Assembly: GCA_963921275.4 (NCBI GenBank)
Contig: OZ001293.3
Location: forward strand, 1-64,000
Source of the DNA: an uncultured Hormoscilla sp.
GTDB lineage: Bacteria; Cyanobacteriota; Cyanobacteriia; Cyanobacteriales; Desertifilaceae
Direction of reading: 5' to 3'
DNA: 64,000 nucleotides
The notes under the pieces: generated by a model
What the model saw: the letters and a program-made list of their open reading frames with translations, nothing else
Told to the model about the DNA's origin: nothing
The model's database searches: none
In this document: positions 370-44,095 of the stretch, in pieces
Layout of the letters: the number at the start of each line of letters is the position of its first letter
Position numbering within the stretch: the first letter of the stretch is position 1
Position numbers and translations under genes: made by a program

Positions 370-2544
370 TTCCTGGACTGAGAAGCTCAGATGGAACTGC
401 GTTTACAATATCAATGACTTTAGCGGCACCACAATGGACGATCGTTTCCAGGCCGCGAGAGATGCAGCGGCGGCGGCGGGTTCGATGCCTTCGGGATGCT
501 TCGCAAAAACCCCTCAGGCATCGCGATGTAGTCTACTTCTCCGCTGGCACTTACCGCTTTACAGACAGCATTTATTTAACAGATGGTGTGGTAATGCGGG
601 GGGAAACGCCATCGGTAACGGATGCTAAATCTAGTTCCTATAATCCTCCCTCTAAGTTAGTGTTTCCCAAGTATGAACCCCGTCTATCCGGTGAGGGAAC
701 GCCGAATGAAACTGCATTCAAAAAAATCTTTATTACTTCACCAGATACGGATAGCAATATTGGGATAGTGAATCTGGATATTAATCGCGCTGGCATCAAT
801 TTACTAGGGGACTTGACTGAAGCCATTCCACTACGGAAATCATTATGGAATTGTGGTAAATCGTTCTGGGAAATACCGTTCCGGAAAAATCTGATATGGG
901 GAAGATCCGACAACACAACCGGGATTATTCCGCAAAGAAATTGTCATCCGGGACAACTGGGTTTATCATACCATGAGGACAGCAATTCAGGCGGCGATAT
1001 CTCCTGTGTGCCGAGTCCCCTGGGACAAGAGCACAACAGGAGATATCGAAGGGTCAGGGTCTGGTGATTAAAGATAACACCATCAGAGACCAAGAAAATA
1101 AACAATGGTGGCTCCATTCGACCGGAACTAAGCAGCCCTTAGGTTCTAATACTTTTGAAAACCGTGCTATTGATTGGTCGGGATGGGATGTGGTAATTGA
1201 AGGCAATAATTATCAAGTCTGTGCGATTCGTTCTAGCCTAACGTGGTCAAACACGGAACGCTAGCCCGGTTTCATTAGCCGGGAACTCTGACCGCATGGG
1301 GGTTAAATTCCCCTCCCCCCAGGTACGGGGGTGACACCGGTCCTCGGTGCTACGAAGCGACATCATCGTGGTGCTAAGCGAGGACTCAAATGTAGGATAA
1401 CTGGCAGCCTAAGCCGGTGACGCCGCTAGGAAAGATATCCAAGGTTAGAGCAGGCAAACATGTGCAAGCCTCGTTATAAGGAACCAGCGAAATAAGGCTA
1501 TATGCGCTGGCCTAAAAAGGAAATGGTAGCTAGTATTAGTTTTAGACTCTGGCTAATATAGTACTCAAATAGCTCCCGGGGTATAGTGTGGACCTAAAGG
1601 TATCGCGAAATGTTGTTAGGGAACGAAGTAACCTCTCGTGTGCTGTCCATCAGGACAAGTTAGATGTTAAGCGCAAGCCACGGGGGGAGGGATGGCCCAA
1701 GAAGCGAATGCCCGGGGTAATTCCTGGGATAACATCTACAGTAATGTAGATGATGCTGGGTAGCCAGCGCTGACGTGGGTCGGTGATACTAGGAAGCTGC
1801 TGGAATGAGTAATCCTAAAAAGCCACGGAACTAATCCGAAACGCAAGTGGAGGATAAGGTATGGATAACTGGTAAAACTGACTTGAAAATGGTGATACTA
1901 ACGGTTATCAGAACAACCACTCGCTAAACCAGGAAAGGGAAGAAAAGACAGGCGGCAAGGGCTAACGGAAGTAATTCCTATTAAGTCTACCTATGAAAAG
2001 GGCCTAGTACCCAGTAGCCGGATGCGGTGAAAATCGCAAGTCCGGTTCCTCAAGGGAGGGTCGGGAAGCGATTCCCGGCTCGACCCCATCCACGGACATC
2101 GCATCATTGATAGCAAGTATTATAGTGTAGATGGAGAAGGGATCCTGATTCAAGAATGCTGTAGAGGAACTAAGGTAAATGGAGCGATAATCAGGAATAA
2201 TCAGGGTAATGGTTATATTGGGTTGTACAAAGTTCCTGTTCCGGAAAAATGTCACCATTACCGGAAATAGGTTGGATAGTCAATGGAAAAAAACACCACT
2301 AATCTATGTTAGTGCTGACCGGAACAGGGGACCGAGTTCGATGTCCAATGTGCGGATATAGAATAATAGAGTCAATGGTAGTATTTTAGCAAAAGCTAGC
2401 GGTACGGGAAACAGGATAGAAAATAATCGCGGCGATAATAGTGGGTCGATTAAATACTCTTGTCAGATAAGAGTATCGGGGAATACAGGTTTTGAATTAG
2501 AACCATGTTTGCGGGGAAAACCTAGGGCGGATCGCCGAGAATGA
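370..2544 (+). pseudogene. Fragmented pectin-lyase-fold/beta-helix-like protein, split by frameshifts, palindromic insertions and a group II intron
   Basis: Segments in different frames (DDRFQAARDAAAAAG; VVYFSAGTYRFTDSIYLTDGVVMRGE; IVIRDNWVYHT; VVIEGNNYQV). Removing intron 1221-2091 gives in-frame NYQV-YGHRIIDSKYYSVDGEGILIQECC. The 63..1067 ORF is a chimera of these frames with an unrelated N-terminus. Confidence 0.6.
1221..2091 (+). mobile_element. ORF-less group II intron, family A, copy 1 (871 nt)
   Basis: Starts GTGCG; domain V AGCCGGATGCGGTGAAAATCGCAAGTCCGGTTC; domain VI hairpin ending ACCCCATCC; no RT ORF; matches copies 2 and 4. Confidence 0.95.
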
Positions 2545-2879
2545 GAATATGCGCTTTAGCACTGCTGTGTGCTAAAGCGCGACAAGGAAGGATTGCTCAT
2601 GGTAGCGCTAAATGCAATAAAATTATAGAGCTTGAGGAATAGGTGTGAGGAACGACATTTGCTAGCCGTGTCTCCTGGGAGCTTGATGTCCCCCGGACGC
2701 ACTTCGATGCCTACCGTTCCGGAAAAATCGGGATGCAACGCAGGCAACCCCTCAGGCATCGTCGAAACCCGGGGGACATCATATTCGCACAAAAGGGGAG
2801 ACACGGCCCGGTCATATGCTGAAGGTGGTTGCGGGAGCAAAACTAGATCGAGCTAGATAATATCAGTAACGCATGAGCT

Positions 2880-5783
2880 ATGATATCAATGCAAGTTTGG
2901 GGCGTTCTCGCTATATTCACCGTCTGTCCTTTGTTGGGAGGACTACCTCTGATTGACTGGATTGCTTTGGCCCTCACTGGCCGCAGTCTGAGACAACTGG
3001 GTACTGGTAATGTATCAGTTTCGGCGGCTTTTTACCACGGCGGACGCTTCGCAGGAACTCTGGCGGTCCTATCTGAGGCGGCCAAAGGGATTGTAGCTGT
3101 CCTACTGGCCCGTTTCTTGTTTCCATCAGCCCATGCTTGGGAGTTGCTGGCCCTGATGGCTCTGGTTGTGGGCCGCTATGGGATGGCTAAAGGTGCCGGG
3201 ACTACTAATGTGGTCTGGGGGGCGATCGCCCATGACCCGGAGGTGGCAGGTTTGGTGTTTCTGATCGGAGTGATTGGCTTTACGATAGTCCGCGAACGCC
3301 AACTGGGACGCTTGGGGGTCTTGGTGCTGTTTCCTCTGATTACCATATTGCTGCGCCCGCAACAAAAGGCAGTCGGTGTGGCGGCGATCGCCCTCAGTTT
3401 GCTGCTAGCCTGGATCTATCAGCAAATTCCAGATGACTTGGACTTGCCAGTGCCACAGGAACAGGGGGAAACTAGAACTATGTTTCGTTTTTTTAGAGGC
3501 GATGGCGGGGCAGTTTCCTTGTCCGATCGACTGGATGCTAGGGTTGTGGGTGAAAAAGCCGCAACTTTATCTGTACTGAAGCGCTGGGGCTATGCTGTAC
3601 CTGCGGGATGGGTGCTGCTACCTGGTGACGATCCGGAACCGCTAATTGAGTTTCTGCAACCGTCGCCAGAAAATCCCCTGGTGGTGCGATCGACTGCTGT
3701 GGGGGAAGATTCACAGCGGGCCACGGCGGCGGGTCAGTATGCAAGCTTCTTAAATGTTACTAGCAATTCTTCTTTGCAGCAGGCGATCGTCCGCTGCTTG
3801 AATTCATACGATCGCCCGGCGGCGGTAGAGTATCGCCGCCGTCGCAATTTGCCAGAAGCATCGATGGCAGTATTAATTCAAGCCCAAGTGCGAGGGGTGT
3901 TTTCCGGTGTGGCCTTTAGTCGGGATCCGGTGAAACGACATGGGGATGAGGTGGTCATTGAAGCTTTACCAGGAGACGCCACTAGGGTAGTGTCCGGACA
4001 GGAGACGCCAGAACAATATCGAGTTGTGGTTCTGGATGGGGAAACAACCAAGGTGGAGGGAACCTTAGGTCTGCCAGACGTGCCACCAGGACTGATTCAT
4101 GATGTTGCGATCTTGGCGCGTCAGCTGGAAAATCAATATAATGGTATTCCCCAGGATATTGAGTGGAGTTATGACGGCAAGCAGCTATGGGTGTTACAAT
4201 CTCGTCCCATCAGTACTATGCTGCCGATCTGGACCCGCAAGATTGCGGCAGAAGTGATTCCCGGCACGATCCGACCCCTGACTTGGTCGATCAATCGTCC
4301 TTTGACTTGCGGCGTCTGGGGAGAGATTTTTACCCTCGTCTTGGGTTCTGCTGCTGCTGTTTTGGACTTTGAGGAAACTACGACTCTGCAATATTCCCGC
4401 GCTTACTTCAATGCTTCCTTGCTGGGGGAAATATATCTGCGCATGGGTTTGCCCCCAGAGAGTCTGGAATTTCTGACTCGCGGGGCTAAGTTTAGCAAAC
4501 CCCCCCTGATGTCTACAATCAAACAATTGCCGGGCTTGCTGCGCCTGCTGAGGCGGGAATGGAATTTAGAACAGGATTTTGAATGTGATTATTCCCAGGA
4601 GTTTGCTCGGAAGACAGAAAGGTTGCACGATATCTGTCTGGAATCTGTCAGTGACCCCGAGGAACTGCTGGCACGAATAGATGGCATCCTGTTAGCCCTG
4701 AAACGGGCGACTTACTATAGCATTCTCGCTCCTTTAAGTTTCGCTCTCAGGCAAGCTCTGCTGAAGGTGGCAGATGCCGATCTCGATTATAGTCTGATGC
4801 CAGAAGTGGCTGCCGCCCGATCGCTCAATGAAATTGCGATCGCGGCCCGTCATCTGCTACCAGAGTTGGAGACTTTGACGCCGGAAACTATCTTTGGCAC
4901 CCTGTCTGAGATCCCAGACGGTCAGACCGTGTTAGAGCAATTTCAGCAATTTCTCAGTCGCTACGGATATCTCAGCGAAGCAGCAACTGATATTGCTACT
5001 CCCAGATGGCAGGAAGACCCCAAACCCGTTCGTCAACTGTTCGTGCAGCAGATTGGTAATATTCACATGGCACCTATAGAGTCCAGTCAAGCTCAAGGTT
5101 TGAAAGCTCAGGTGGTGCAGGCCCGCCTTAATCTTAAAGCTAGAGTAACGAAGGTTTATAATCAATTGCTAGCACAACTGCGCTGGAGTTTTGTCGCTTT
5201 GGAGCAAGTCTGGCTGCGATCGGGTATGTTGCAGGAGTCTGGAGATATCTTTTTCCTCCAGTTTTCTGAAATCCGCAATTTGATTGCTGGTATGGACAAG
5301 GGTGAGTTGAGTGAGAAATTACCGCAGTTAATTGGGACCAGAAGAAGTCAATTGCAACAGGATAAGAAGCTGACTGCTGTACCCTATGTAGTTTACGGCA
5401 ATGCCCCCCCAGCAGCTATCCTTAATTATAGCTGGAACCGCCCAAGTGCTAGTCAGCAGTTGCTCGGAATTGGTGCTAGTCCCGGACTGGTAGAGGGTGA
5501 GGTGAAAATCCTCCGCAGTTGGCAAGAGATGCCAGATATTAACCGCAATCATATTTTAGTTGTACCTTATACTGATGCTGGTTGGTCGCCGCTTTTGGCC
5601 CGTGCGGGCGGTTTGGTTGCGGAAGAGGGTGGGCGCTTGTCCCATGGCGCGATCGTGGCCCGGGAGTATGGCATTCCCGCAGTGATGGATGTCCATGATG
5701 CTACAATTCTCTTGCAGGATGGTCAGCGTCTGCGCATTGACGGTCAGTTGGGAACTGTGGAAGTGATCATTGCTCATGGTTAA
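2880..5783 (+). CDS. PlsY-type acyltransferase fused to PEP/pyruvate-binding and PEP-utilising phosphohistidine domains
   Basis: N-terminal TM region with GTGNVSVS and EAAKG; central VVRST..GED and QDIEW motifs; C-terminal GGRLSHGAIVAREYGIPAV. Confidence 0.85.
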   Translation: MISMQVWGVLAIFTVCPLLGGLPLIDWIALALTGRSLRQLGTGNVSVSAAFYHGGRFAGTLAVLSEAAKGIVAVLLARFLFPSAHAWELLALMALVVGRYGMAKGAGTTNVVWGAIAHDPEVAGLVFLIGVIGFTIVRERQLGRLGVLVLFPLITILLRPQQKAVGVAAIALSLLLAWIYQQIPDDLDLPVPQEQGETRTMFRFFRGDGGAVSLSDRLDARVVGEKAATLSVLKRWGYAVPAGWVLLPGDDPEPLIEFLQPSPENPLVVRSTAVGEDSQRATAAGQYASFLNVTSNSSLQQAIVRCLNSYDRPAAVEYRRRRNLPEASMAVLIQAQVRGVFSGVAFSRDPVKRHGDEVVIEALPGDATRVVSGQETPEQYRVVVLDGETTKVEGTLGLPDVPPGLIHDVAILARQLENQYNGIPQDIEWSYDGKQLWVLQSRPISTMLPIWTRKIAAEVIPGTIRPLTWSINRPLTCGVWGEIFTLVLGSAAAVLDFEETTTLQYSRAYFNASLLGEIYLRMGLPPESLEFLTRGAKFSKPPLMSTIKQLPGLLRLLRREWNLEQDFECDYSQEFARKTERLHDICLESVSDPEELLARIDGILLALKRATYYSILAPLSFALRQALLKVADADLDYSLMPEVAAARSLNEIAIAARHLLPELETLTPETIFGTLSEIPDGQTVLEQFQQFLSRYGYLSEAATDIATPRWQEDPKPVRQLFVQQIGNIHMAPIESSQAQGLKAQVVQARLNLKARVTKVYNQLLAQLRWSFVALEQVWLRSGMLQESGDIFFLQFSEIRNLIAGMDKGELSEKLPQLIGTRRSQLQQDKKLTAVPYVVYGNAPPAAILNYSWNRPSASQQLLGIGASPGLVEGEVKILRSWQEMPDINRNHILVVPYTDAGWSPLLARAGGLVAEEGGRLSHGAIVAREYGIPAVMDVHDATILLQDGQRLRIDGQLGTVEVIIAHG

Positions 5784-5813
5784 TGTCCAATTGTGAATTG
5801 CTAATTGTCAATT

Positions 5814-6456
5814 GGGGTGCGATGAAAGTCGCACGTCCGGTTCCGAACGGGAGGGTACCGAAGCGATTCCCAGCTCGACCCCTAATACTTATGAGAGCCT
5901 CGTAACTATTAACCGGCGAAATAAGGCTTTATGCGCCGGAGACAAAAGTCACTGTAGTTAGTGTTAGTTGTATTATCTGGCTAACAACGTACTCAAATAA
6001 CTACCGGGGTGTAGTAGGAACCTAAAGGCATCGCGCTCCGGAGACCAGGGAACGAAGTAACCCCTCGTGGGCTGTCCAACTGGACCAGTCAGATGTGAAG
6101 CGTATGCCACGAGAGGGAGCCCAAGCCTGCCCCCAAGAAGCTAATACCTGGGCGGTGTCTTCCGCATGCGGAAGACACCGAGTAATGCCCAGGATACGCC
6201 GACGTGCGGTGAGGGTGGGTGATAGTAGGAAGTCTCAGGTAGAAAGTAACTCTGAAAATGTTATGAACCCTTCACTATAGGTGATGAGGTATAGATGTAA
6301 AGGAGCAAAATCGCATGGGATAAGGCACAATGGGAGTAATCCAAAAGTTACCTACCATTGACTTGGGCCTACTACCCAGTAGCCGGATGCGGTGAAAGTC
6401 GCTTTTTAGGTTCCGAACGGGAGGGTCGGAGGGTGACTTTCGGCTCGACCCCTAAT
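5814..6456 (+). mobile_element. Nested, 5'-truncated group II intron remnant (inner DV-DVI 5814-5886; outer partial intron 5887-6456)
   Basis: Two DV/DVI ends, both finishing CGACCCCTAAT. The sequence between them aligns with domain I blocks of families A/B (CGAAATAAGGCT, GGGAACGAAGTAAC). The outer DV is mutated. Confidence 0.8.
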
Positions 6457-9267: not shown

Positions 9268-9270
9268 ACA

Positions 9271-9381
9271 ATGAACAAAATTATTCCCATTGACATTCCC
9301 CTTGACAAGATAGCAGAATTAAGTCGCTATTTCCGGGACCGAGTTCTGAAGGAGGCAGAAGAGTTGTATGTTCATAGATGA
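9271..9381 (+). pseudogene. Internally deleted minimal nucleotidyltransferase (MNT antitoxin-like) remnant
   Basis: MNKIIPIDIPLDKIAE joined directly to LSRYFRDRVLKEAEELYV; these resemble the two termini of MNT antitoxins with the catalytic core missing. Confidence 0.5.
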
Positions 9382-9433
9382 CCCATATGACTTCCCAAAG
9401 CGAGGAAAACTAACAACTAACAACTAACAATTA

Positions 9434-9765: not shown

Positions 9766-11749
9766 ATGAACAAGTTGCTGACAATCCTCAAATTACTGGT
9801 GCCAGTAGCCTCGATATTAGCTGGGTTTATAGCAGGCTGGTTCTTGGAGAAACGTGTAATTACCAAGCTGCATGCCATTGCTAATCAAACTGGATGGCAA
9901 GGCTATGAAATAATCATTAAATCCCTACAGGGCGTCACTCTGCTTTGGTCTATCGTTGCTGGCATATTTGGCGCAACTCTTAGCTTTCCCATCGCTCCGG
10001 GACTGCTGGTAACGATCCAAAAAACTCTGCTGGCAACTCTCTTAGGTTCAGCCACCATAGTCGTGGCTCGACTGGCTGTCAAGTTTATCAAACTCTATTA
10101 TAGCAACACGGTAGAAGTAGAAGGTGCTTCACCTTTAACATCTTTATTGGAAAATTTGACAAAAATTGCTATCTATACTATAGTATTTCTGATCATTCTT
10201 CAGTCGATCGGGGTGGGAATTACACCCTTATTGACGGCCTTGGGGGTGGGTGGTGTTTCCATTGGTCTGGCCCTCCAGAATACTCTATCTAATCTATTTT
10301 CGGGTCTGTGCGATTCGTTCTAGCCTAACGTGGTCAAACACGGAACGCTAGCCCGGTTTCATTAGCCGGGAACTCTGACCGCATGGGGGTTAAATTCCCC
10401 TCCCCCCAGGTACGGGGGTGACACCGGTCCTCGGTGCTACGAAGCGACATCATCGTGGTGCTAAGCGAGGACTCAAATGTAGGATAACTGGCAGCCTAAG
10501 CCGGTGACGCCGCTAGGAAAGATATCCAAGGTTAGAGCAGGCAAACATGTGCAAGCCTCGTTATAAGGAACCAGCGAAATAAGGCTATATGCGCTGGCCT
10601 AAAAAGGAAATGGTAGCTAGTATTAGTTTTAGACTCTGGCTAATATAGTACTCAAATAGCTCCCGGGGTATAGTGTGGACCTAAAGGTATCGCGAAATGT
10701 TGTTAGGGAACGAAGTAACCTCTCGTGTGCTGTCCATCAGGACAAGTTAGATGTTAAGCGCAAGCCACGGGGGGAGGGATGGCCCAAGAAGCGAATGCCC
10801 GGGGTAATTCCTGGGATAACATCTACAGTAATGTAGATGATGCTGGGTAGCCAGCGCTGACGTGGGTCGGTGATACTAGGAAGCTGCTGGAATGAGTAAT
10901 CCTAAAAAGCCACGGAACTAATCCGAAACGCAAGTGGAGGATAAGGTATGGATAACTGGTAAAACTGACTTGAAAATGGTGATACTAACGGTTATCAGAA
11001 CAACCACTCGCTAAACCAGGAAAGGGAAGAAAAGACAGGCGGCAAGGGCTAACGGAAGTAATTCCTATTAAGTCTACCTATGAAAAGGGCCTAGTACCCA
11101 GTAGCCGGATGCGGTGAAAATCGCAAGTCCGGTTCCTCAAGGGAGGGTCGGGAAGCGATTCCCGGCTCGACCCCATCCGAATATTATTACTTCCAAAAAA
11201 GTGAGGCCGGGGGACTATATCCAGCTGGAAACTGGTGAGGAAGGTTACGTTATCGATGTAGCATGGCGATATACGATCGTCCGGGAAATCCCAGATAATT
11301 TCATCGTGATTCCCAATGCCAAGATTGTTTCTTCTACTTTCAAGAACTATAGCTTCCCAGATAGAGAAATGCTGGTCTTGGTGACCGTCGGGGTTAGTTA
11401 TGATAGCGATTTGGAAAAAGTTGAAGCAGTAACCCTAGAGGTAGCTAGTGAGATTATGAATAAAATTGCCGGTGGGGTATCGGAATATCAACCATTTATG
11501 CGCTACGAATAATTTGGTTATTTTAGCATTAACTGTAGAGTTTACTTAACGATAAAAGAATATTTAGATCATCTGATAGTTAGACATGAGTTTATCAAAA
11601 GGTTGCACAAGCGCTATCAAAGAGAAGGAATTAAAATTCCCTTCCCCATCAAAACAGTTTATATTCCCGAAACAAGTGATGGAAGTGGCAAAAATAACAG
11701 TTTCAAGCTATCATATAGGAGAAATGGAGAATCAGCAATTGACAATTAG
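9766..11749 (+). pseudogene. MscS-family mechanosensitive channel, split by a sense-strand intron, with premature TAA at 11510-11512
   Basis: LGVGGVSIGLALQNTLSNLFSG. Removing the intron gives SGL-NIITSKKVRPGDYI. The frame continues past the TAA to EGIKIPFP. Confidence 0.85.
10308..11178 (+). mobile_element. ORF-less group II intron, family A, copy 2
   Basis: GTGCG...ACCCCATCC, 871 nt, matches copy 1. Confidence 0.95.
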
Positions 11750-13495: not shown

Positions 13496-14199
13496 TTAGT
13501 GATGGTTCGTGGTTCCTAGCCGATCTTACCATGAACCATCCATACTTCTACCGCAAGGCATAAAGGTTGAAATTCTCGTAACCATTTAAAAAGGGTTCCT
13601 GCTCCACTGTAATCTTGCTGAACCCCTGTTCTTTGAGTAAAGCTGTTATCTTTTCGACTCGACGATCCAAATCGTGGACTTCCATCACGATTTGCTTAAT
13701 TTTTTGCCAATCGCGATCTTCGATACCTAAAAGCACATCTAACTCGCTTCTCTCCACATCCACTTTGAGCAAGTCAATCTGCCAAATATTCTGCTCGCTG
13801 ATAATTTCCGATAGCGTTCTCAACTGGCAGGTTACTTGCTCCATTTGAAAAGCTTTTTCTAGTTTGTTTTCGATAATAAGCGATCGCAGGAAGGGAGGAA
13901 GCCAACGAAGCCAACGAATGGATCTCGGGGCTTCGTTGAGATTATTAAGAGCCACCTTCTTCATCAAGTCTCGCTGCTCTTTTGAATCATCCGGGTAGAT
14001 GGTAGACCAACCAGTACTGTTAGGATAGTAAGCAAAAATCATAGTCTGAGAATGCCGTGAAAGTCCGCAGGGAAATAGCTTTATTTTTCCTGGATTAAAT
14101 CGTTGGACATTGCGCTGGAGGACTTCAAAAGTTGCTGGCATAGGTTCAAATGCATAGATGTTGGCATTGTTCTTACACAACTGACATACGAAAAGTGTA

Positions 14200-15034
<835 letters not shown>

Positions 15035-15181
15035 AACAACCCAATGTTAGCCCCAACATCAAACACTGTGTCCCCTTCCTGTAACTTAATTCCATTTTCA
15101 AAGTACAGGGGCATTTATTCGTAGTTAAAATACACTTTATCTTGATTTTGGTAAAATATTTTTACCCCATTAGGAAGTGTA

Positions 15182-16016
<835 letters not shown>

Positions 16017-16184: not shown

Positions 16185-17456
16185 TTAGCGTAGCACGGGC
16201 TTACCCGTAGATGCCACCTGTTCGATGATATCAGCAGCTCTGTTCACCCCGCCCGATCGCCCGATCGCCTCTTGTAGCCTCAAGGCATTCTGTTTGTATG
16301 ATTCTTCCCTCAGCACCTTCATAATAGCCTTTCGCAGCCTGGCCGCGCTCAATTTCCTCAAGGGGACAACCTCCCCACTCCCCGTCTAAGCTATACGCGC
16401 TGCTACTCCTGGCTGATCGTTGGTAACCGGAATGGCCACCATCGGCACTCCATTCTTCAGGCATTCCATAGTTGTATTCATTCCCGCATGAGTAACCATG
16501 AGAGTCGCTTGTTTGAGAAGTTCCAATTGAGGTGCATACTCAACCACTAGTGGATTTCCCGGCAATTCAGGTAGTAATTCTGGTTTAGCGGAACCCCCCA
16601 GAGAGATTACCAATTGAGCATTTAATCCCTCACAAGCTTCCGCAATTTTCTCAAATACCGCAATCAGGCGATTTTGCAAGGTTCCCATCGAAGCGTAAAT
16701 CAAAGGTTTCCCTGTCAATTGCTCATAGGGGAAAGGGACTGGTTCTCTACTAGCCGCAGAATGGTAAGGTCCAGTGAGATGGAACCACTGGGGCAAATTT
16801 TGCCTGGGGAATTCAAATTCAGCAGGCGCTTGACTCAGTTGAGCCAGTTGAGAGTAATTATCATTGGGATGAGAATGTCGGGGTAAGTTCCACTCCCGAC
16901 GATAGGATGCGATCGTCTCTATAACTGGTTTCGCTAGAAGCTTCAATAGCTCATTCCCCATGCGGTTGCGTAAACCCGCTCACCCAGCCTGGCCATACTG
17001 CCAGAAAGTGTAACAAGGAGGAACTGCGGGATCTAGATTCAGCACCGCTGCACTACACACAGTAATAAAGGGAATATCTAGATAGTCCGCAACAGTTCCT
17101 CCCTCCGTTGCACCTTGGTTGACTAGCAAAGCTTCAACACCCGCACCTGACATCTGTTGTGGACCATCCCTAAGCATAACTGTTGCTTCCAGCTTGAGCA
17201 GCTCAATAGTATATTGTAATGCAGCCAGGCCCCTCAGTTTCCCTAGTTGGGCATATAATTCTGCTGTCGAGCCCGCCGGAAACTCTTTGGCTCCAATTGC
17301 CTGGAATTCTAAGGAAGCTGTCAATGTCTTAGGTTGAGCATCGAGTATACCGAATAGGGTGACGCGATGACCGCGCTGTTGAAGTTCCTGCCCCAAGGGA
17401 AGCATGGTGTTCAGCGGACCTGTATATCCAGGACATATAATACCAAAATGAGTCAT
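16185..17456 (-). pseudogene. UDP-glycosyltransferase (GT1/MGT family) with two nonsense codons
   Basis: Paralog of 18427-19707; stops at 16980 and 16386 where the paralog has Trp; YASMGTLQN and THAGMNTT motifs. Confidence 0.9.
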
Positions 17457-17476
17457 GTGCTTATCTGTTTAAACTA

Positions 17477-18426: not shown

Positions 18427-19707
18427 CTAATCTGTTGTCGCCAAGACTGGCTTCCCCGTAGATGCCACCTGTTCGATGATATCAGCAGCTCTGCTTACCC
18501 CGCCCGATCGGGCGATCGCCTCTTGTAGCCTCAAGGCATTCTGTTTGTATGATTCTTCCCTCAGCACCTTGATAATAGCCTCTCGCAGCCTGCTGGAGCT
18601 CAATTTCCTCAAGGGGACAACCTCCCCACTCCCCGTCCAAGCTATACGCGCTGCTACTCCTGGCTGGTCGTTGGTAACCGGAATGGCCACCATCGGCACT
18701 CCATTCTTCAGGCATTCCATAGTTGTATTCATTCCCGAATGAGTAACCATGAGAGTCGCTTGTTTGAGAAGTTCCAATTGAGGTGCATACTCAACCACTA
18801 GTGGATTTCCCGGCAATTCAGGTAGTAATTCTGGTTTAGCGGAACCCCCCAGAGAGATTACCAATTGAGCATTTAATCCCTCACAAGCTGCCGCAATTTT
18901 CTCAAATACCGCAATCAGGCGATTTTGCAAGGTTCCCATCGAAGCGTAAATCAAAGGTTTCCCTGTCAATTTCTCATAGGGGAAAGGCACTGGTTCTCTA
19001 CTAGCCGCAGAATGGTAAGGTCCAGTGAGATGGAACCACTGGGGCAAATTTTGCCTGGGGAATTCAAATTCAGCAGGCGCTTGACTCAGTTGAGCCAGTT
19101 GAGAGTAATGATCATTGGGATGAGAATGTCGGGGTAAGTTCCACTCCCGACGATAGGATGCGATCGCCTCTCGAATAGGTTTCGTTACATAATTCGATAA
19201 CTCATAACCCAGACAGTTGCGTAAACGCGCCCACCCCGCCGGGCTATACTGCCAGAGGGTGTAACAAGGAGGAACCGCGGGATCTAGATTCAGCACCACT
19301 GCACTGCAGACAGTAACGAAGGGAATGTCTAGGAATTCGGCCACAGTCCCGGACTCTCTTGAAACCTGGTCTACTAGGAGTGCTTCTACACCTGCTTGTT
19401 TGATTGCTTCTGGGGCTTCCCGGAGGCGCATCATAGTCTCCCGCCCTAAGGCACCGACGGTATATCGCAATGCAGCCAGTCCCCTCAGTTTCCCCAACTG
19501 GGCATCCCTTTGGGCTGCCCACCCGAGTGGAAACTCTTCCACTCCAATTGCCCAGAATTCCAATCCTGCTGCCACTGTCTTTGGTTCCATATCTAGGACT
19601 CCAAATAGGGTGACGCGATGACCCCGCTGTTGCAGTTCGTATCATAATGGGGTGATTGTGTTCATGTGACCAGTTGAGCCAGGACATATAATACCAAAAT
19701 GAGTCAT
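18427..19707 (-). pseudogene. UDP-glycosyltransferase (GT1/MGT family), frameshift near N-terminus
   Basis: MTHFGIICPGSTGHMNT start at 19707 is out of frame with the 387-aa body; PSPG-like C-terminal motif APQLELL..THSGMNTT..DQPGVA. Confidence 0.85.
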
Positions 19708-19731
19708 ATGCTTGTCAAGAGTAAATTATTA

Positions 19732-23214: not shown

Positions 23215-23680
23215 GTCCCTGATTCAGTCGGGGAAGTCCCTGACTACTGAGGTGAACTGTCGCACTCATTCGGAGACTTCCTGAATCATTCGGGGAAGTC
23301 CCTGAATCATTCGGGGAAGTCCCTGAATCATTCGGGGAAGTCCCTGACTACTGAGGGGAAGTGCCTGACTACTGAGTGGAAGTGCCTGACTACTAAGGGG
23401 AAGTGCCTGACTACTGAGTGGAAGTGCCTGACTACTGAGTGGAAGTGCCTGACTACTGAGTGGAAGTGTCGCACTCATTCGGTGAAGTGCCTGACTACTG
23501 AGGGGAAGTGCCTGACTACTGAGGGGAAGTGCCTGACTACTGAGGGGAAGTGCCGCATTCAGTCACTGAAGTGTTTACTACTAACCCGCAAGCACTTCAG
23601 TGCTTACTACTAACCCGCAAGCACTGAAGTGCTTACTACTAACCCGCCTACAAACTCGCAAGCACTCAAGTGCTTACTCG
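23215..23680. repeat. Mosaic 21-bp tandem array (17 units, 23215-23570) followed by about three 29-bp hairpin units
   Basis: Units such as GTGCCTG-ACTACTG-AGGGGAA and GTCCCTG-AATCATT-CGGGGAA, then GTGCTTACTACTAACCCGCAAGCACTGAA units. Confidence 0.95.
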
Positions 23681-24292: not shown

Positions 24293-26002
24293 ATGACTTA
24301 CAGAATGGATCGCCGCGCCTACGCCCAAACCTACGGCCCCACGGTGGGCGATCGCCTGCGTCTGGCGGACACCGAACTGTTCGTGGAAGTGGAACGTGAT
24401 TATACCACCTATGGGGATGAAGTAAAGTTTGGCGGCGGCAAGGTGATCCGCGATGGCATGGGACAATCTCCCATTGCTAATGCTGATGGTGCGGTTGACA
24501 TGGTTATCACTAATGCGTTAATCTTAGATTGGTGGGGCATCGTTAAAGCTGATGTGGGCATCAAAGATGGTAAGATTGTGAAGATTGGTAAAGCAGGCAA
24601 TCCCTATATTCAAGATAATGTCGATATTATCATTGGTCCGGGCACCGAAGCAGTGGCGGGAGAAGGGATGATTCTGACCGCAGGGGCCATAGATGCCCAT
24701 ATTCATTTTATCTGTCCCCAACAGATTGAAACCGCGATCGCCTCCGGGATTACCACGATGCTGGGGGGCGGGACTGGCCCCGCTACGGGCACCAATGCTA
24801 CTACTTGTACTCCCGGACCTTGGCATATTCACCGCATGTTGCAAGCAGCTGATGATTTTTCTGTTAATCTCGGTTTCTTAGGTAAGGGTAACAGTGCCCA
24901 ACCCCAAGGATTAGTAGAACAGGTGATGGCCGGGGCCATGGGATTGAAGTTACATGAAGATTGGGGCAGTACCCCAGAGGCGATCGATACTTGCCTCTCC
25001 GTTGCTGATGCCTATGACCTGCAAGTTGCTATTCATACTGATACTCTCAATGAAGCGGGATTTGTGGAAACTACTATCAATGCTTTCAAAAATCGTGCCA
25101 TCCATACCTACCACACGGAAGGCGCTGGCGGCGGACATGCCCCCGATATTATTAAGGTTTGCGGCCAAGCAAATGTACTACCTTCTTCCACAAATCCTAC
25201 CCGTCCTTATACCCTTAATACTCTGGAAGAACACCTAGATATGCTGATGGTTTGCCACCATTTAGACCCGGGTATCCCCGAAGATGTCGCCTTCGCTGAG
25301 TCCCGCATTCGCCGGGAAACGATCGCTGCTGAAGATATCTTACATGATCTGGGCGCTTTTAGCATGATTGCTTCTGACTCCCAGGCTATGGGACGAGTCG
25401 GAGAAGTGATTATCAGAACTTGGCAAACGGCCCATAAAATGAAAGTACAGCGTTCTCACCTCCCCCAAGACCCAGATCGCCATGACAATTTCCGCGCTAA
25501 GCGCTATATTGCTAAGTATACTATTAACCCCGCTATTACCCACGGGATTTCCCAATATGTCGGTTCGGTCGAGGTTGACAAATTAGCAGATCTGTGCTTG
25601 TGGAAACCCGCATTCTTTGGCGTTAAACCAGAAATAGTGATCAAAGGTGGCGCGATCGCCTATGCCCAAATGGGAGACAGCAATGCTAGCATTCCTACAC
25701 CCCAACCGGTGCATATGCGCCCCATGTTTGCTGGCTTTGGCGGGGCGATCGCTGCTACTTCGGTCACCTTTGTCTCCCAAGCAGCACTCGAAAAAGAAAT
25801 TCCGGCCCAAATCGGGTTACAAAAACCCGCAGTTGCCGTCGGCAACACCCGGAAATTACGCAAGCAAGACATGAAACTAAACGACGCTTTGCCTGCTATA
25901 GAAGTAGACCCGGAAACCTACCAAGTCAGGGCCGATGGAGAATTACTTACCTGCGAACCCGCAACCCTCCTGCCATTGGCCCAACGCTATTTTCTCTTTT
26001 GA
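24293..26002 (+). CDS. ureC: Urease subunit alpha
   Basis: [51 protein letters not shown]. Confidence 0.99.
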
Positions 26003-36195: not shown

Positions 36196-36635
36196 CGTCA
36201 GATGCAGTAATAACTGGACAAGGATTCAGCGATCGCCCCCAGCTGGGGGGCGGTTGGAAACTCCCGCCCGTGAGTCAGGAATTTTCTGGCTGCTTTGCTT
36301 AGGGTTATGGCCCTAACGTGATTTGTTGTGAACATGACATTTGTTCTCTCTAATCCCAAGCCTGCCCGTTTCTGCCTTGGGGATTTTTCCAGATATGCAA
36401 AATCCCTCCAGAAAAGGATTAACAGATGCACCCTGATGCTTTCCCTTAGCGCCACCGCCTGCTAGAGGATTTTTTTGCCAAATTGATTTACCCTTGAGAC
36501 AGATTAAACTGCAAGCAGCTTGAAGAACTCTCACTCGTTAAGCTGTTATGCATTATATTTTCATCAAGAGAAAAGCCCAGAGCAATGTTCATAAATTGCT
36601 TTGGCAATTGGGAATGAGAGAATTTTGAATCGCTT

Positions 36636-38640
36636 ATGACCGATTTTTCCGAAACGGTAGAACCGCCCGACCCGAAAAACAACCAGACCCTTGACCAGTT
36701 AATGATGCACCGGTGTATCGAACTCGCTCATCGGGCTTGGGGACGGACAGCTCCCAATCCCTTGGTGGGTTGTGTAATATGTAAAGATGGTCAGATAATC
36801 TCAGAAGGCTTTCATCCCCAGGCAGGGGAACCCCATGCCGAAGTGTTTGCCTTACGGGATGCTGGAGAACATGCCCGGGAGGCAACAGTCTATGTGAACC
36901 TGGAACCTTGCAATCACTACGGACGCACGCCTCCCTGTACGGAAGCTTTGATTGCTGCTGGAGTCAGTAAAGTGGTAGTGGGCATGGTTGACCCCGATCG
37001 CCGAGTATCTGGAACCGGCATAGAAAGGTTACGTGCCGCTGGCATTCAGGTCCTAGTGGGTGTAGAAGAGGATGCTTGCCAGCAGCTGAATGAGGCATTT
37101 ATCCATCGGATTCTTTACCAGCGTCCCTTTGGGATTCTAAAATATGCCATGACCCTGGACGGCAAGATTGCGACAACCCAGGGTCACAGTACCTGGGTGA
37201 CAGGGGCGGAAGCGAGAAAATGGGTGCATCGGTTGCGATCGGCTAGCGATGCGGTTATAGTTGGCGGCAATACGGTGCGTCAGGATAACCCCCAACTGAC
37301 AACCCATGGGGTGAGCGATCGCAATCCTTTGCGGGTAGTAATGTCTCGGCAGCTGGACTTGCCCGCAGCACCGCAGCTGTGGGATACGGCAGTAGCTCCG
37401 ACTGTAGTCTTTACTACATTAGGGGCCAATCGGGATATGCAGCAGAAGCTACAAAAACAGGGAGTCGAAGTTGTAGAACTTTCCGATCTCAGCCCAACTC
37501 AGGTAATGGCCCATCTCTATGAACGGAATTTCCTCTCAGTTTTGTGGGAATGTGGGGGTGCCCTGGCCGCCCAGGCGATCACGGACGGTGCAGTGCAAAA
37601 GATTGCCGCCTTCATCGCCCCGAAAATCATTGGCGGCACAGGGGCCCCCTCGCCAGTAGGAGATTTGGGGTTCACGGCCATGACTCAAGCTTTACCCTTA
37701 AGGAGACTGTGCGATTCGTTCTAGCCTAACGTGCTCAAACACGGAACGCTAGCCCGGTTTCATTAGCCGGGAACTCTGACCGCATGGGGGTTAAATTCCC
37801 CTCCCCCCAGGTACGGGGGTGACACCGGTCCTCGGTGCTACGAAGCGACATCATCGTGGTGCTAAGCGAGGACTCAAATGTAGGATAACTGGCAGCCTAA
37901 GCCGGTGACGCCGCTAGGAAAGATATCCAAGGTTAGAGCAGGCAAACATGTGCAAGCCTCGTTATAAGGAACCAGCGAAATAAGGCTATATGCGCTGGCC
38001 TAAAAAGGAAATGGTAGCTAGTATTAGTTTTAGACTCTGGCTAATATAGTACTCAAATAGCTCCCGGGGTATAGTGTGGACCTAAAGGTATCGCGAAATG
38101 TTGTTAGGGAACGAAGTAACCTCTCGTGTGCTGTCCATCAGGACAAGTTAGATGTTAAGCGCAAGCCACGGGGGGAGGGATGGCCCAAGAAGCGAATGCC
38201 CGGGGTAATTCCTGGGATAACATCTACAGTAATGTAGATGATGCTGGGTAGCCAGCGCTGACGTGGGTCGGTGATACTAGGAAGCTGCTGGAATGGGTAA
38301 TCCTAAAAAGCCACGGAACTAATCCGAAACGCAAGTGGAGGATAAGGTATGGATAACTGGTAAAACTGACTTGAAAATGGTGATACTAACGGTTATCAGA
38401 ACAACCACTCGCTAAACCAGGAAAGGGAAGAAAAGACAGGCGGCAAGGGCTAACGGAAGTAATTCCTATTAAGTCTACCTATGAAAAGGGCCTAGTACCC
38501 AGTAGCCGGATGCGGTGAAAATCGCAAGTCCGGTTCCGAAAGGGAGGGTCGGGAAGCGATTCCCGGCTCGACCCCATCCGCAACTCACCCAGCTAGGGAA
38601 CGATTTTTTGCTTACAGGCTACTTACAATTAAAACAATGA
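36636..38640 (+). CDS. ribD: Riboflavin biosynthesis deaminase/reductase RibD, split by a group II intron (exons 36636-37708 and 38580-38640)
   Basis: HAE, LEPCNHYGRTPPC, KYAMTLDGKIA, ECGG. Removing the intron gives RRL-QLTQLGNDFLLTGYLQLKQ*. Confidence 0.93.
37709..38579 (+). mobile_element. ORF-less group II intron, family A, copy 3
   Basis: 871 nt, about four substitutions relative to the other copies. Confidence 0.95.
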
Positions 38641-38661
38641 AGAAAGACTAACAACAGTTTT

Positions 38662-39363: not shown

Positions 39364-39389
39364 TCGCACAAAAGGGAGGACATCGCCGA

Positions 39390-40172
39390 TCAATCAAGAA
39401 TTTGGGACAAGAACTTCTGGGTGCGCTCCTCCTTGGGGTTGTTGAAAAATTCATCTGGCGTCCTATCTTCTACTAACAGACCATCCGCCATCAGCACGAT
39501 CCGATCGGCCACTTCCCGAGCAAACCCTACTTCATGGGTGACGACTACCATTGTCATCCCTGAAGTGGCCAGGGTGCGCATTACGTCCAATACTTCCCGC
39601 ACCATCTCTGGGTCCAGTGCTGAGGTGGGTTCGTCAAATAGCATGATCTTCGGTTCCATTGCTAAGGCCCGGGCGATCGCCACCCGTTGCTGCTGACCCC
39701 CCGACAGTTGACCCGGATACTTCTGCGCCTGCTCCAGGATCCCAACCCTTTCCAACAGCTGCATGGCCTTCTCTTCGGCATTGGCCTGGGGCCAGCGACG
39801 CACCCAGATCGGAGCCAAGGTGACATTTTGCAGGATCGTCAGATGCGGAAACAGGTTAAACTGCTGAAACACCATCCCTACTTCCCGCCTAATCTCTTCT
39901 ATATTCTTCAGGTCGTGGGATAGGTTAATCCCATCTATGACTATAGAACCCTTCTGGAATTCCTCCAAAGCATTAAAGGTGCGGATAAAGGTCGATTTCC
40001 CAGAACCACTCGGTCCCATGATTACTACTACTTCCCCCCGCCGCACCGATAAACTGACACCCCTCAGGGCGTGAAATTTATTACTGTACCATTTGTGAAC
40101 ATCAGTGGCGACGATCGCCTCGAATGAGTCATTCTGTAATTTTGTCTGTAATTGCTTTGTTGGTTGTGTCAT
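39390..40172 (-). CDS. Polar amino-acid ABC transporter ATP-binding protein
   Basis: [35 protein letters not shown]. Confidence 0.95.
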
Positions 40173-40641
40173 TTTCCTGTTATACTACTTAGGGTGAGGG
40201 TTGCTTAGCATCATATTTGAGAATTGAGCAATTGTTAATTGACTACTGACTACGCAACGTTGCACAACGACGGTATGATAAGGGTTGAAAATTGTTAATT
40301 GTAAATAGTAAATTAAAATTTTCATAAATAGCCATATATTATGTATGAACGAACAATTTTCAACCTCTTAATTGCTATCATCCCAAAAATGTGCAACGCC
40401 CGCAACAATAGTTAATCATAGCCATCTAAATTACGCTTTTGTTCTTGAAAACGTTGTATCCGCGCCTGAATGTCCGTGACTGTGTTCCGAATTTCTCTCC
40501 CAGTTTTTTATGTCGAATAAGATGCCATTTTGGATAATTTCACTAATAGCTGCTGTCATGGTCGATTGTTAATTTAGGTTGAATTTTGCTGATCATGGTA
40601 GCATTTAATGGTAGGGTTTCGTACCTCAACCCTACCTACAA

Positions 40642-41856
40642 CTAGCGATCGCCTGTATTGAGTTGTTTTTCTAAGCGGCGACTAGCCAGAGACATAGCAT
40701 AGCAAAAACACCAGTAAAGTATCCCTACGAATAAGTATACCTCGGCATAGCGCCCCAAAAACTTGGGATTGGCTAAAACTGAGTTACTGATGCCCAGCAA
40801 TTCTACCAGTCCTACCAGGGCTAGCAATGTTGTATCTTGAAACAAACCGATGAACTGACCCACGATCGCGGGAATGACCGCTTTGAGGGCCTGGAGTAAG
40901 ACAATCAGTCCTAAGACCAAGGGTGTATTTAATCCTAAAGCTTTCGCCGCTTCTGTTTGACCTCTAGGAACTGATTGTAGTCCCGCCCGGACATTTTCCG
41001 CCAGATAAGCTGAACTGAACATCGTCAGACCAACGATCGCCCTTAGTACCCGATCCGGTCGCATACCCTCTGGCAGGAACAATGGGATCATAATTTGTCC
41101 CATAAACAGAATTGAGATCAGGGGTACTGCCCGGACGAATTCAATATATAGAACGGAAAACCCGCGCACTACTGGCAGGGTACTTTGTCTTCCTAATGCT
41201 AGCAGAACGCCAATGGGAAAGGACAATACTATGCTGGTCACTGCCATGAAAACAGTCAGAATCAGACCCCCCCATTTACTGGTGGATACCTCTTTTAATC
41301 CCAAACCTCCAGCTATCAACCACAGGACAATAAAGAATGCCCCAAACCAGGCCAATGATAGCCAACAACCCGGTATCTTTTTCCCTACTTGCTGACCTCC
41401 CCAAGCAGTTCCGACTAAGACCCCCACCATTAACAGCAGTAACAGGCGATAAATAATTGGGACTGGCACTAGCATTAATGCCCCAGAAGTTACCCCGACA
41501 GCAATTAATATTTTCCCACCGAACAGTTTCCGGCTTTTTCTTGCCAATACTCCCCAAGACAGTCCTGATAACAGGACTGCGATCGCCAAGATCGCCCAGA
41601 TGCGCCAATAGTCATCCTGAGGATATCTACCCACAAAAAATAAGGCCAGGTTGGCTTGCAGTACCCGCCACTGGGCGATCGTCGTAGCCCAAACCAGAAA
41701 TCCTTTGATAGTTTGGAAGAATATGCCGCAGAGTATTACTGTCAGCAGACCGTTGTACCAGGTACTAAATAGGTTTTTCTGTATCCACTTTACCGGATCT
41801 ACCTTGAGTTCTGGTGGCGCTTCTATATTAGTATTTTTGGGATTAATGGTTGTCAT
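40642..41856 (-). CDS. Amino-acid ABC transporter permease (AapM/BztC/NatH-like)
   Basis: LLALGRQS, YIEFVRAVPLI, AYLAENVRAGLQSVPRGQTEAA. Confidence 0.9.
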   Translation of the reverse strand: MTTINPKNTNIEAPPELKVDPVKWIQKNLFSTWYNGLLTVILCGIFFQTIKGFLVWATTIAQWRVLQANLALFFVGRYPQDDYWRIWAILAIAVLLSGLSWGVLARKSRKLFGGKILIAVGVTSGALMLVPVPIIYRLLLLLMVGVLVGTAWGGQQVGKKIPGCWLSLAWFGAFFIVLWLIAGGLGLKEVSTSKWGGLILTVFMAVTSIVLSFPIGVLLALGRQSTLPVVRGFSVLYIEFVRAVPLISILFMGQIMIPLFLPEGMRPDRVLRAIVGLTMFSSAYLAENVRAGLQSVPRGQTEAAKALGLNTPLVLGLIVLLQALKAVIPAIVGQFIGLFQDTTLLALVGLVELLGISNSVLANPKFLGRYAEVYLFVGILYWCFCYAMSLASRRLEKQLNTGDR

Positions 41857-42169
41857 ACTTCATCCGGTGTGGTCAAAACCAGTTGGTTGGTAAAGTAAAA
41901 AGCGTTCGGGGGGTCCTCTCGTGGGGGCCAGAAACCCGGTTTCTTCATCAACTCTCGCTTTTCCTCTCGTTCCCAGGTTCTAACTGGGAACGGTCTTCTG
42001 ATTTTTCTGAGGTTTGTAGTGAGGACTTCCGTCCTCACTACAAACCTCAGTTGCTCAAGAGCACCCCTGCTACCAGAATAAACACTAATACTGCTAGGAC
42101 TTGCAGTGCTATACGCCAGAACCGATCGTCTCGCCATAGAGGGATTTTATCATCTTTGTTCCTGGTCAT
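41853..42169 (-). pseudogene. Internally deleted first permease (AapQ/BztB/NatG-like)
   Basis: MTRNKDDKIPLWRDDRFWRIALQVLAVLVFIL..SN stops at a palindrome; about 150 bp of repeats replace the gene body. Confidence 0.7.
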
Positions 42170-42186
42170 CTTGCTAATTGCTAACT

Positions 42187-44095
42187 TTAGTGGAAAGGAG
42201 GAGAATAAAGCAAACCTCCACGAGTCCGTGCGATTCGTTCTAGCCTAACGTGGTCAAACACGGAACGCTAGCCCGGTTTCATTAGCCGGGAACTCTGACC
42301 GCATGGGGGTTAAATTCCCCTCCCCCCAGGTACGGGGGTGACACCGGTCCTCGGTGCTACGAAGCGACATCATCGTGGTGCTAAGCGAGGACTCAAATGT
42401 AGGATAACTGGCAGCCTAAGCCGGTGACGCCGCTAGGAAAGATATCCAAGGTTAGAGCAGGCAAACATGTGCAAGCCTCGTTATAAGGAACCAGCGAAAT
42501 AAGGCTATATGCGCTGGCCTAAAAAGGAAATGGTAGCTAGTATTAGTTTTAGACTCTGGCTAATATAGTACTCAAATAGCTCCCGGGGTATAGTGTGGAC
42601 CTAAAGGTATCGCGAAATGTTGTTAGGGAACGAAGTAACCTCTCGTGTGCTGTCCATCAGGACAAGTTAGATGTTAAGCGCAAGCCACGGGGGGAGGGAT
42701 GGCCCAAGAAGCGAATGCCCGGGGTAATTCCTGGGATAACATCTACAGTAATGTAGATGATGCTGGGTAGCCAGCGCTGACGTGGGTCGGTGATACTAGG
42801 AAGCTGCTGGAATGAGTAATCCTAAAAAGCCACGGAACTAATCCGAAACGCAAGTGGAGGATAAGGTATGGATAACTGGTAAAACTGACTTGAAAATGGT
42901 GATACTAACGGTTATCAGAACAACCACTCGCTAAACCAGGAAAGGGAAGAAAAGACAGGCGGCAAGGGCTAACGGAAGTAATTCCTATTAAGTCTACCTA
43001 TGAAAAGGGCCTAGTACCCAGTAGCCGGATGCGGTGAAAATCGCAAGTCCGGTTCCTCAAGGGAGGGTCGGGAAGCGATTCCCGGCTCGACCCCATCCAG
43101 AGGTCATTTTGACCCCGAGGTAGTTTTAATTCTGAATTCTTCCCCAGGTTGCGATCGTATACTTGCCCGTAGTTTCCTACATGCTTGACTATTCTAGCAG
43201 TAAAATCATTACTCAAACCCAAACCCTCTCCTAAATTCCCTTCTACTCCCAAGAAACGCCCGATCGTCGGGTTATCCGATCTTTTCATCATCTCCACATT
43301 AGCACTTGTGATACCCAACTCCTCTGCTTCTATCAAACTGTAGGTCACCCATTTCACCACGTCAAACCAGGCCGAGTCATTATTAATTGTCGCTGGTCCC
43401 AGAGGTTCCTTGGACATAGTTACATCCAAAATTATATGATCTTGGGGATTGGGAAAGTTACTGCGGCGGGCTACTAATGCTGATTTATCTGCCGTCACTC
43501 CCTCACAGCGTCCTTCTAAGTATGCTGCAAAGGTAGCATCTGCCTGCTGATATGCGATCGGGGTAAAATTCACTCCTGCTTGGCGCATTTTATCGGTTAA
43601 ATTCAGTTCCGTGGTCGTCCCCGTCCCCACACAGATAGAAGTGCCTTGCATATCTGGCAAAGACCTGATGCCACTATCTTTGCGCACCATCATCCCCTGA
43701 CCGTCGTAGAAAGTCGTGGGGGCAAATTCCATGCCCACCAAACTATCGCGACCGAGAGTCCAGGTAGTATTGCGAGAGAGGACATCCACCTCGCCACCGT
43801 TGAGGGCCGTAAACCGTTCGCTAGCTTCCAGGTTGCGGTACTCTACTGCTTCTGGGTTGTCGAACAAGGCCGCCGCCACTGCCCGACAGACCTCCACATC
43901 TATACCAGAATATTTACCGTTTGAGTCTACAAAGCTAAATCCTGGTAAAGTGCCGCTGACGCCACAGATCAGCTTGCCCCGTTTCTTGACTATATCCAAG
44001 CGACTTTGCTTCTGCTCTCGCAACTCGCTACCACAACCCATTATTGGTGCAATAGCAAGTAGGGTGGCTAGTAGCAGAGGTTTCCATCTAGGCAT
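42187..44095 (-). pseudogene. Amino-acid ABC transporter substrate-binding lipoprotein (AapJ/BztA/NatF-like), antisense intron near 3' end
   Basis: LICGVSG.LPGFS, LSRNTTWT, SKEPLGP. Removing the intron restores NDLWTRGGLLYSPPFH*, matching the paralog. Confidence 0.9.
42228..43098 (+). mobile_element. ORF-less group II intron, family A, copy 4
   Basis: 871 nt; the empty site CACGAGTCC/AGAGGTC is present in the paralog at about 44155-44170. Confidence 0.97.

Follow-up and report, generated by a model that had tools for sequence, protein, structure and literature searches.

The penultimate A of the AY 3′ end is treated as near-universal in group II introns and has been compared with the AG of nuclear introns. 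The DNA analysed here, a 64,000-nucleotide (nt) window at the start of a 6.88-Mb contig (C1:1-6879066) in the 7.03-Mb assembly of an uncultured Hormoscilla sp., includes introns that depart from this rule. The window carries six full-length copies of two families of group II intron, A and B, that have no open reading frame (ORF), and the point at issue is whether these elements end at AU (A) and AC (B), or at the nucleotides that follow. The DNA evidence answers that the mobile unit ends ATCC in family A and GACT in family B, so that the last two nucleotides of the intron are CC and CU.

Boundaries of the mobile elements

The Rfam model of group II intron domains V and VI (RF00029) gave six plus-strand matches above its gathering score of 40 (44.4-47 bits), four of them in family A (2013-2089, 11100-11176, 38501-38577 and 43020-43096) and two in family B (14956-15033 and 15938-16015). 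A repeat finder returned the same six elements together with a 3′ fragment at 6292-6452. Family A is 871 nt long, begins GTGCG and ends ACCCCATCC; its four window copies all lie on the plus strand, at 1221-2091, 10308-11178, 37709-38579 and 42228-43098. Copies 1, 2 and 4 are identical across the 871 nt, and copy 3 has four differences. Family B, 835 nt long and ending ACCCCGACT, is about 63% identical to family A and has two window copies on the same strand, B1 at 14200-15034 and a second 147 nt downstream at 15182-16016. The original prediction, made from the letters of the window, had recognized the four 871-nt copies as group II introns without an ORF, and the RF00029 matches, the repeat finder and the absence of any reverse transcriptase (RT) match inside them bear this out.

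In the genome as a whole, blastn found 139 full-length copies of family A (at least 97% identity) at 122 distinct sites and 72 copies of family B at 62 distinct sites. Of these, 61 family A copies are letter-identical to copy 1, as expected from the recent spread that had been proposed, and 20 family B copies are identical to B1. The 5′ end is GTGCG in 138 of the 139 A copies, the remaining one having GTGTG, and in all 72 B copies, and thus conforms to GUGYG. A profile search with domains V-VI gave 443 matches in the genome, 404 of them with a complete 3′ end; when the 3′ matches were paired with 398 matches to intron 5′ ends, 326 ORF-less elements of 700-1010 nt were delimited, and these clustered at 94% identity into 50 families. 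Every family with more than three copies in the genome ends CY. The best match of the element to the Rfam models of domains I-IV was to group-II-D1D4-2 (22 bits, E 0.042), short of that model's gathering score of 36. We conclude that families A and B are ORF-less mobile group II introns, and that their copy number in this genome is exceptional.

Identity among the family A copies stops exactly at GTGCG and at GACCCCATCC (ATCC). We searched the genome for unoccupied sites by joining 20 nt from each flank under four hypotheses of the 3′ end for every distinct site and comparing the joined sequences with the genome by blastn-short. Unoccupied paralogous sites were recovered for 22 of the 122 family A sites, all 22 solely under the hypothesis that the element ends ATCC; five of these are junctions of tandem arrays that match themselves, leaving 17 informative. 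For family B, unoccupied sites were recovered for seven of the 62 sites, again solely under one hypothesis, that of a GACT end. Across the genome, no unoccupied site fitted an ATC, AT or A end at any of the 122 family A sites, or a GAC, GA or GACTA end at any of the 62 family B sites.

The window itself contains one unoccupied site, which had been proposed from the outset. In the tandem paralogue of the gene that hosts copy 4, alignment places the target, ...CACGAGTCC/AGAGGTC... (a slash marks the junction), between 44163 and 44164, and thereby implies an insertion of 871 nt. A further site lies within family A. The sequence AAGTCT/ACCTATG (1983-1995 on the plus strand in copy 1, cut between 1988 and 1989, or family A positions 768 and 769) is uninterrupted in most copies, while at several loci another copy of A has inserted there; because its flanking letters permit no sliding of the boundary, the position is unambiguous. 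Among the DNA contigs of four sequencing runs, no contig bridged an empty site.

The reading frames of the host genes lead to the same boundaries. Copy 1 lies in sense within a 140-codon ORF that has no Pfam match, copy 2 lies in sense within a gene for an MscS-type channel, which it splits between MS_channel_1st and MS_channel_2nd, and copy 3 lies in sense within ribD, 20 codons before the stop, where the upstream exon covers positions 1-180 of the 197 in the RibD_C profile. In copies 1 and 2 the frame stays open across the junction if 868 or 871 nt are removed, and not if 869 (an AT end) or 870 are. Copy 4 is antisense to a gene for an SBP_bac_3 solute-binding protein (43100-44122, minus strand), which it enters 13 codons before the stop, and there is no plus-strand host gene. 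The claim that the frame is restored in all four hosts was therefore loosely worded. B1 is likewise antisense to its host, an FkbM-type methyltransferase gene (13551-14198 plus about 15035-15115, minus strand), and neither copy 4 nor B1 could be spliced from its host mRNA because of this orientation.

Over all sites, exact removal of the element joins the exons into an ORF that extends 50 codons or more to each side of the junction at 48 of the 122 family A sites, compared with 15 if 1 nt remains and 14 if 2 nt remain; the corresponding figures for the 62 family B sites are 24, 5 and 4. Of the 75 site/strand cases retained by this criterion, we scanned both exon halves with Pfam in 70, omitting three duplicate sites and the two window copies, which were scanned separately. 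The same Pfam family often spans the junction with one or a few profile positions missing, for instance DUF3352 (188/190), DUF928 (86/88), DUF4126 (41/45), PhyH (137/141), Aminotran_3 (276/282), SpoIIE (123/125) and PRK (103/109). The ATCC and GACT ends that had been favoured over AT and AC are thus upheld by the unoccupied sites and, as described below, by covariation. Judged by unoccupied sites, frames and covariation, the textbook AY is absent from the 3′ end of either family, its place being taken by CC in family A and CU in family B.

Pairing partners and the domain VI tail

If the boundaries read from DNA are those of the intron RNA, the nucleotides on either side of them should have partners within the intron. 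In an alignment of 50 sequences, one per family, we identified the intron column with the highest mutual information for each exon position. Positions -1 to -6 of the exon pick family A positions 324 to 329 in antiparallel order, with 84-94% of the families paired; this places exon-binding site 1 (EBS1, AGACTC) at 1544-1549 of copy 1, where it had been predicted. Exon positions -9 to -13 pick positions 257-261, and both this covariation and the target logo place EBS2 (TAAGG) at 1477-1481; an alternative EBS2, AAGGTT at 1441-1446, was ruled out by the covariation. The first nucleotide of the 3′ exon picks position 364, so that EBS3 is U1584 of copy 1; 46 of the 50 families are paired here (A:U in 27, U:A in 10 and C:G in eight among them) and four are unpaired.

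The last intron nucleotide, C2091 in copy 1, picks position 470, a G at 1690 in the junction between domains II and III (J2/3), after the domain II helix, which corresponds to γ. The combinations are U:A in 27 families, C:G in 20, U:G in one and U:C in two. Since the families are related, we also compared closest relatives with different last nucleotides, which form 14 non-overlapping pairs of families, and γ is compensated in 13 of them. It follows from these pairings that the nucleotide called last by the DNA boundaries behaves as γ′ and the next one as intron-binding site 3 (IBS3), whatever the terminal letters. An EBS3-IBS3 pair together with a γ-γ′ pair is the mark of subgroup IIB, and both are present. 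The partners of the penultimate nucleotide (family A positions 464, 638 and 833) track the split between UAAU and CY ends, which could be phylogenetic, and we make no claim for them.

Pairing with the target is relaxed, as had been suggested from the window copies. At the 122 family A sites IBS1 is fully paired in just 40, has one non-pair in 65 and two or more in 17, and IBS3 forms a Watson-Crick pair in 88, a G:U pair in 19 and a mismatch in 15. The target logo is degenerate and matches EBS1, EBS2 and EBS3.

Domain V of copy 1 occupies 2016-2047 (RF00029 and fold) and domain VI 2054-2091. The predicted domain VI consists of a basal GGG/CCC helix of 3 bp, an internal A/GA loop, a 10-bp helix, a GCGA loop in copy 1 and a 5-nt tail, CAUCC, and its bulged A2083 is the presumed branch point. 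The same fold is predicted for family A, family B and a family ending UAAU, in each of which 8 nt follow the presumed branch A. The Rfam consensus has 6 nt there, and the alignment of copy 1 to the model therefore stops at AU (2089), 2 nt early. Such a displacement between alignment and splice site is known in another form: a review describes 50-70-nt ‘domain VII’ extensions in class B introns such as B.c.I4, whose real 3′ splice site likewise lies downstream of the AY of the consensus alignment (PMC4424553). Class B introns are spliced 50-70 nt downstream by means of an added domain (PMC4424553), whereas families A and B exceed the Rfam consensus by just 2 nt, which belong to a single-stranded tail; a structured extension of the class B type is absent, the predicted domain VI being followed by the 5-nt single-stranded tail.

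The tails that follow ACCCC in the 404 complete 3′ ends are ATCC in 147, GACT in 109, GACC in 67, TAAT in 36 and minor types in 45; summed over 13-mer classes, the penultimate nucleotide is C in 344, A in 56 and T in four. We also scanned 151 sampled genomes of the order with an exact domain V-VI pattern, to which diverged relatives are invisible. CY tails occur in two of the 151 genomes, with 243 matches in the window's genome and 18 in one congener. A relative of family A (92%) in a congener ends AGCC. AY tails occur in four, with six matches in the window's genome, 31 in the congener and one and 14 in two other genera; all of those found are CCCCTAAT or TAAC. The CY pattern was present at 29 loci or more, and the named records among the matches listed are three Hormoscilla sp. 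metagenome-assembled genomes.

The original prediction had taken the unusual ends as a shift in 3′ splice-site geometry. That explanation finds no support, because the UAAU relatives have the same domain VI and the same 8 nt after the bulged A. As these canonical relatives share the spacing both here and in two other genera, the long tail is a trait of the lineage. On this comparison of genomes, the derived feature is the penultimate A-to-C change in this genus, the spacing being unchanged, and the AT within ATCC is coincidental.

The intron RmInt1 belongs to another class of group II introns. It comes from Sinorhizobium meliloti and ends CC, so that the ends described here are not the first of their kind; the paper on RmInt1 regards its penultimate pyrimidine as having no parallel in other group II introns (Chillon et al., 2014; PMC4238363). 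An RT is encoded by RmInt1 itself, whereas the A/B lineage is ORF-less and cyanobacterial, and the penultimate C, found in RmInt1 as CC, occurs here also as CU, in a total of 344 of the 404 ends. The RT protein of RmInt1 is described as lacking the endonuclease domain (PMC4615759). Beside an intron presented as the lone exception, the Hormoscilla introns constitute a second, independent lineage in which C replaces the penultimate A, and one with hundreds of active-looking copies. Canonical-ended relatives in the same genome are natural controls, and the role of the penultimate nucleotide becomes directly testable.

It is conceivable, though we think it improbable, that the A-to-C change is an adaptation of a parasitic ORF-less IIB lineage rather than neutral drift, shifting the balance between the second step and its reversal towards mobility; a G1:C contact may, for instance, replace the G1-A contact. 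If true, this would explain why every family with more than three copies ends CY, and why the load of group II introns exceeds any that we found in the bacterial literature.

Mobilization, splicing and rival explanations

What could account for the observed DNA-level boundaries, base-pairing partners, lack of ORFs and presence of RT genes in the same genome? We consider it probable that A and B are ORF-less IIB introns of one lineage that have multiplied recently by reverse splicing into DNA. The RNA would recognize its targets through EBS2 (1477-1481), EBS1 (1544-1549) and EBS3 (U1584), and would insert, and presumably be excised, exactly between IBS1 position -1 and IBS3 position +1. The intron would thus begin with GUGCG and end 8 nt beyond the bulged A in domain VI, its last nucleotide (C in A, U in B) would pair with γ in J2/3, and the RT/maturase/HNH protein of canonical-ended sister introns would act in trans.

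A supply of such protein exists, as a search for RT-encoding relatives, suggested with the original prediction, has established. RVT_1 is matched 93 times across the genome, a tblastn search with one RT gave 57 matches of 350 aa or more, and one ORF of 609 aa (C1:1145462-1147288) combines RVT_N, RVT_1, GIIM and HNH domains. About 55 RT/maturase/HNH ORFs belong to a sister lineage of introns of about 2.4 kb, which begin GTGCGATTCGTTTAGTG and end ...GGCTTAGTTTAAT, with a canonical AU and 7 nt after the A. In these introns (C1:4777196-4779591 and about 55 relatives) the ORF extends across domains V and VI, and the stop codon lies within domain VI, 6 nt before the intron end (TAGTTTAAT). Within introns of the A/B lineage, no RT match was found anywhere in the genome except as a nested RT-bearing intron. 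The genome contains 237 occurrences of a motif that resembles domain IVa (DIVa) and includes an ATG. The motif opens 12 codons (146 occurrences) or 30 codons (84), never more than 33, and looks like the relic of a lost intron ORF start; the corresponding conserved hairpin lies at 1860-1905 in family A and 14805-14850 in family B. We looked for an autonomous parent of A and B in the genome and found none, there being no RT within the lineage, only weak similarity to the RT-bearing introns, and no long DIVa ORF. Copies without an RT, beside RT ORFs in a sister lineage, point to mobilization in trans, and by analogy with Thermosynechococcus elongatus the protein of the ORF-bearing sister introns is the likely source of A/B mobility.

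Several observations weigh against this reading. The RT-bearing introns are distant from A and B (70% identity over 132 nt and 76% over 63 nt) and their DIVa differs, so that their protein is a presumed helper. Lariat splicing in vivo and the branch point are predictions from the DNA. In RmInt1, replacing the penultimate nucleotide hampers the second step of splicing in vitro, so that a C there may carry a cost (PMC4238363). Insertions of family A into ORFs are nearly balanced, with 27 sense and 21 antisense, and for both the glutamate synthase gene interrupted at C1:5580677-5581511 and a MetH-like host gene the genome retains an intact second copy, so that no case forces the conclusion that splicing works.

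The strongest of the rival explanations, although we regard it as unlikely, is that the elements are mobile and splice poorly, the CY end weakening exon ligation, with most copies disrupting genes in a genome under relaxed selection. Antisense insertion into ORFs is common, accounting for 21 of 48 family A sites and six of 24 family B sites, and since the host mRNA offers no way to splice out a copy in this orientation, many genes are plainly inactivated, those hit including SpoIIE, PRK-family, CheA-like and RT genes. The two interrupted genes of housekeeping type that were checked have intact paralogues. In RmInt1, penultimate substitutions impair the second step, and its authors argue that this intron has retained low efficiency and fidelity (PMC4238363). 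However, reverse splicing requires a released intron with the 3′ end seen in the DNA, so cleavage after CC or CU must occur; the compensation of γ-γ′ and EBS3 across families argues for selection on second-step contacts; and family B shows an excess of sense insertions (18 against 6).

It is far less probable that the elements multiplied at the DNA level, whether through recombination, duplication or the action of a transposase, or that their number is an assembly artefact. Some flanks are shared, the 139 family A copies occupying 122 sites, so that a minority arose through duplication of larger segments or of intron-carrying host elements. Yet the distinct flanks, 122 for A and 62 for B, carry a logo complementary to EBS1, EBS2 and EBS3, and the insertions are without target duplication. 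As for an artefact, contig word depth over the intron exceeds that of the flanks more than 100-fold in the runs that contain this DNA, and in two other studies contigs are likewise interrupted at the ATCC end, although two of these data sets (X2 and X4) may be the assembly's own sample.

Least credible of all are introns ending at AU (A) or AC (B), with the following CC or U belonging to the target or 3′ exon, for although the RF00029 alignment of copy 1 stops at AU and an AC end would give family B the textbook 7 nt after the bulged A, such ends fit none of the 29 unoccupied sites, the self-target site within family A lacks the CC, exact removal restores the frame about three times as often, and it is the nucleotide after ATCC or GACT that covaries with EBS3, and not the preceding C or U, which covaries with γ.

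If A and B do move by reverse splicing, the introns themselves have been among their targets. Family A twintrons formed by self-insertion at position 768/769 were seen at six loci, five sharing both flanks and one the 3′ flank only; C1:1325884-1327625 is among the self-insertion and array loci. Head-to-tail arrays comprise two copies at C1:824934-826675 and three at C1:5447656-5450268, and would fit re-insertion at the same 5′ junction, with the G of the resident intron as position +1. Copies of A and B are also found, mostly antisense, inside the RT/maturase/HNH ORFs of RT-bearing introns (C1:1059808-1060678, 1148426-1149296, 614359-615229, 2801581-2802451, 687011-687844 and others), and one site, which separates the maturase domain from the HNH domain, is hit recurrently; in this way the non-autonomous elements disrupt the very genes that presumably serve their mobility.

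Reviewed rules for group II introns are the termini 5′ GUGYG...AY 3′ and, in bacteria, the rarity of ORF-less forms (PMC4424553). The nearest parallel is Thermosynechococcus elongatus, in which ORF-less introns of the TeI3 type are mobilized in trans by TeI4 proteins (Mohr et al., 2010; PMC2882425). Both are cyanobacterial sets of ORF-less IIB introns, in families with diverged EBS1, EBS2 and EBS3, with RT-bearing relatives alongside, twintrons and relaxed target requirements (PMC2882425). They differ in scale, the 28 introns given for T. elongatus (PMC2882425) comparing with 404 3′ ends and 326 ORF-less copies in 50 families here, and the Hormoscilla genome is without a recent ORF-bearing parent of A and B. 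The ends are mostly CY in Hormoscilla; our comparison with T. elongatus covers features other than the intron 3′ ends.

In its load of introns the genome resembles that of Arthrospira platensis, another filamentous cyanobacterium with a burst of group II introns, where 101 introns were the maximum in a survey of representative genomes (PMC8919778) and ‘at least 150’ are cited elsewhere (PMC4649490). Hormoscilla has 443 domain V-VI matches, 404 of them complete 3′ ends and mostly of ORF-less elements, which is several times these highest per-genome counts that we found in print. Within the library searched, no paper mentions Hormoscilla together with group II introns, and a curated intron database may catalogue CY ends from cyanobacteria. 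With about 180 distinct insertion sites for two families, the genome offers a large natural data set that bears on target rules, on twintron formation and on the insertion of non-autonomous elements into the RT genes of their presumed helpers, and is relevant to models of introns overrunning a genome.

Intron fragments and other features of the window

A remnant at 5814-6456 had been described as a single element. It does end ACCCCTAAT, as stated, and proves to be two 5′-truncated copies arranged head to tail on the plus strand. The first, at 5814-5886, consists of domains V-VI only, and the second, at 5887-6456, belongs to a UAAU-ended family, starts in the middle of domain I, retains the 3′ end and has a degenerate domain V; both end ACCCCTAAT. 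We considered the first as an internally deleted copy, and dropped this in favour of 5′ truncation within domain V.

The paralogous SBP_bac_3 genes near copy 4 form a tandem pair (43096-43868 and 44161-44929; 77-81% identity), the second gene being split into two ORFs. A local duplication is also present at 16195-17465 and 18446-19716 (75-95% identity, 2.25-kb spacing), and a tandem array of at least 12 copies of a 21-nt unit (65-100% identity) occupies 23238-23596. An Rfam match to 5_ureB_sRNA on the minus strand at 24448-24734 (87.7 bits; gathering score 40) probably reflects conserved urease gene sequence and no small RNA, the family having been described from another phylum. Outside the window, the 31,420-bp contig C3 has a G+C content of 17.6%, compared with 47% in the chromosome, and may come from another organism or an organelle. 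Finally, a tRNA gene lies on the minus strand of the window at 45839-45911 (Rfam tRNA, 65.2 bits).

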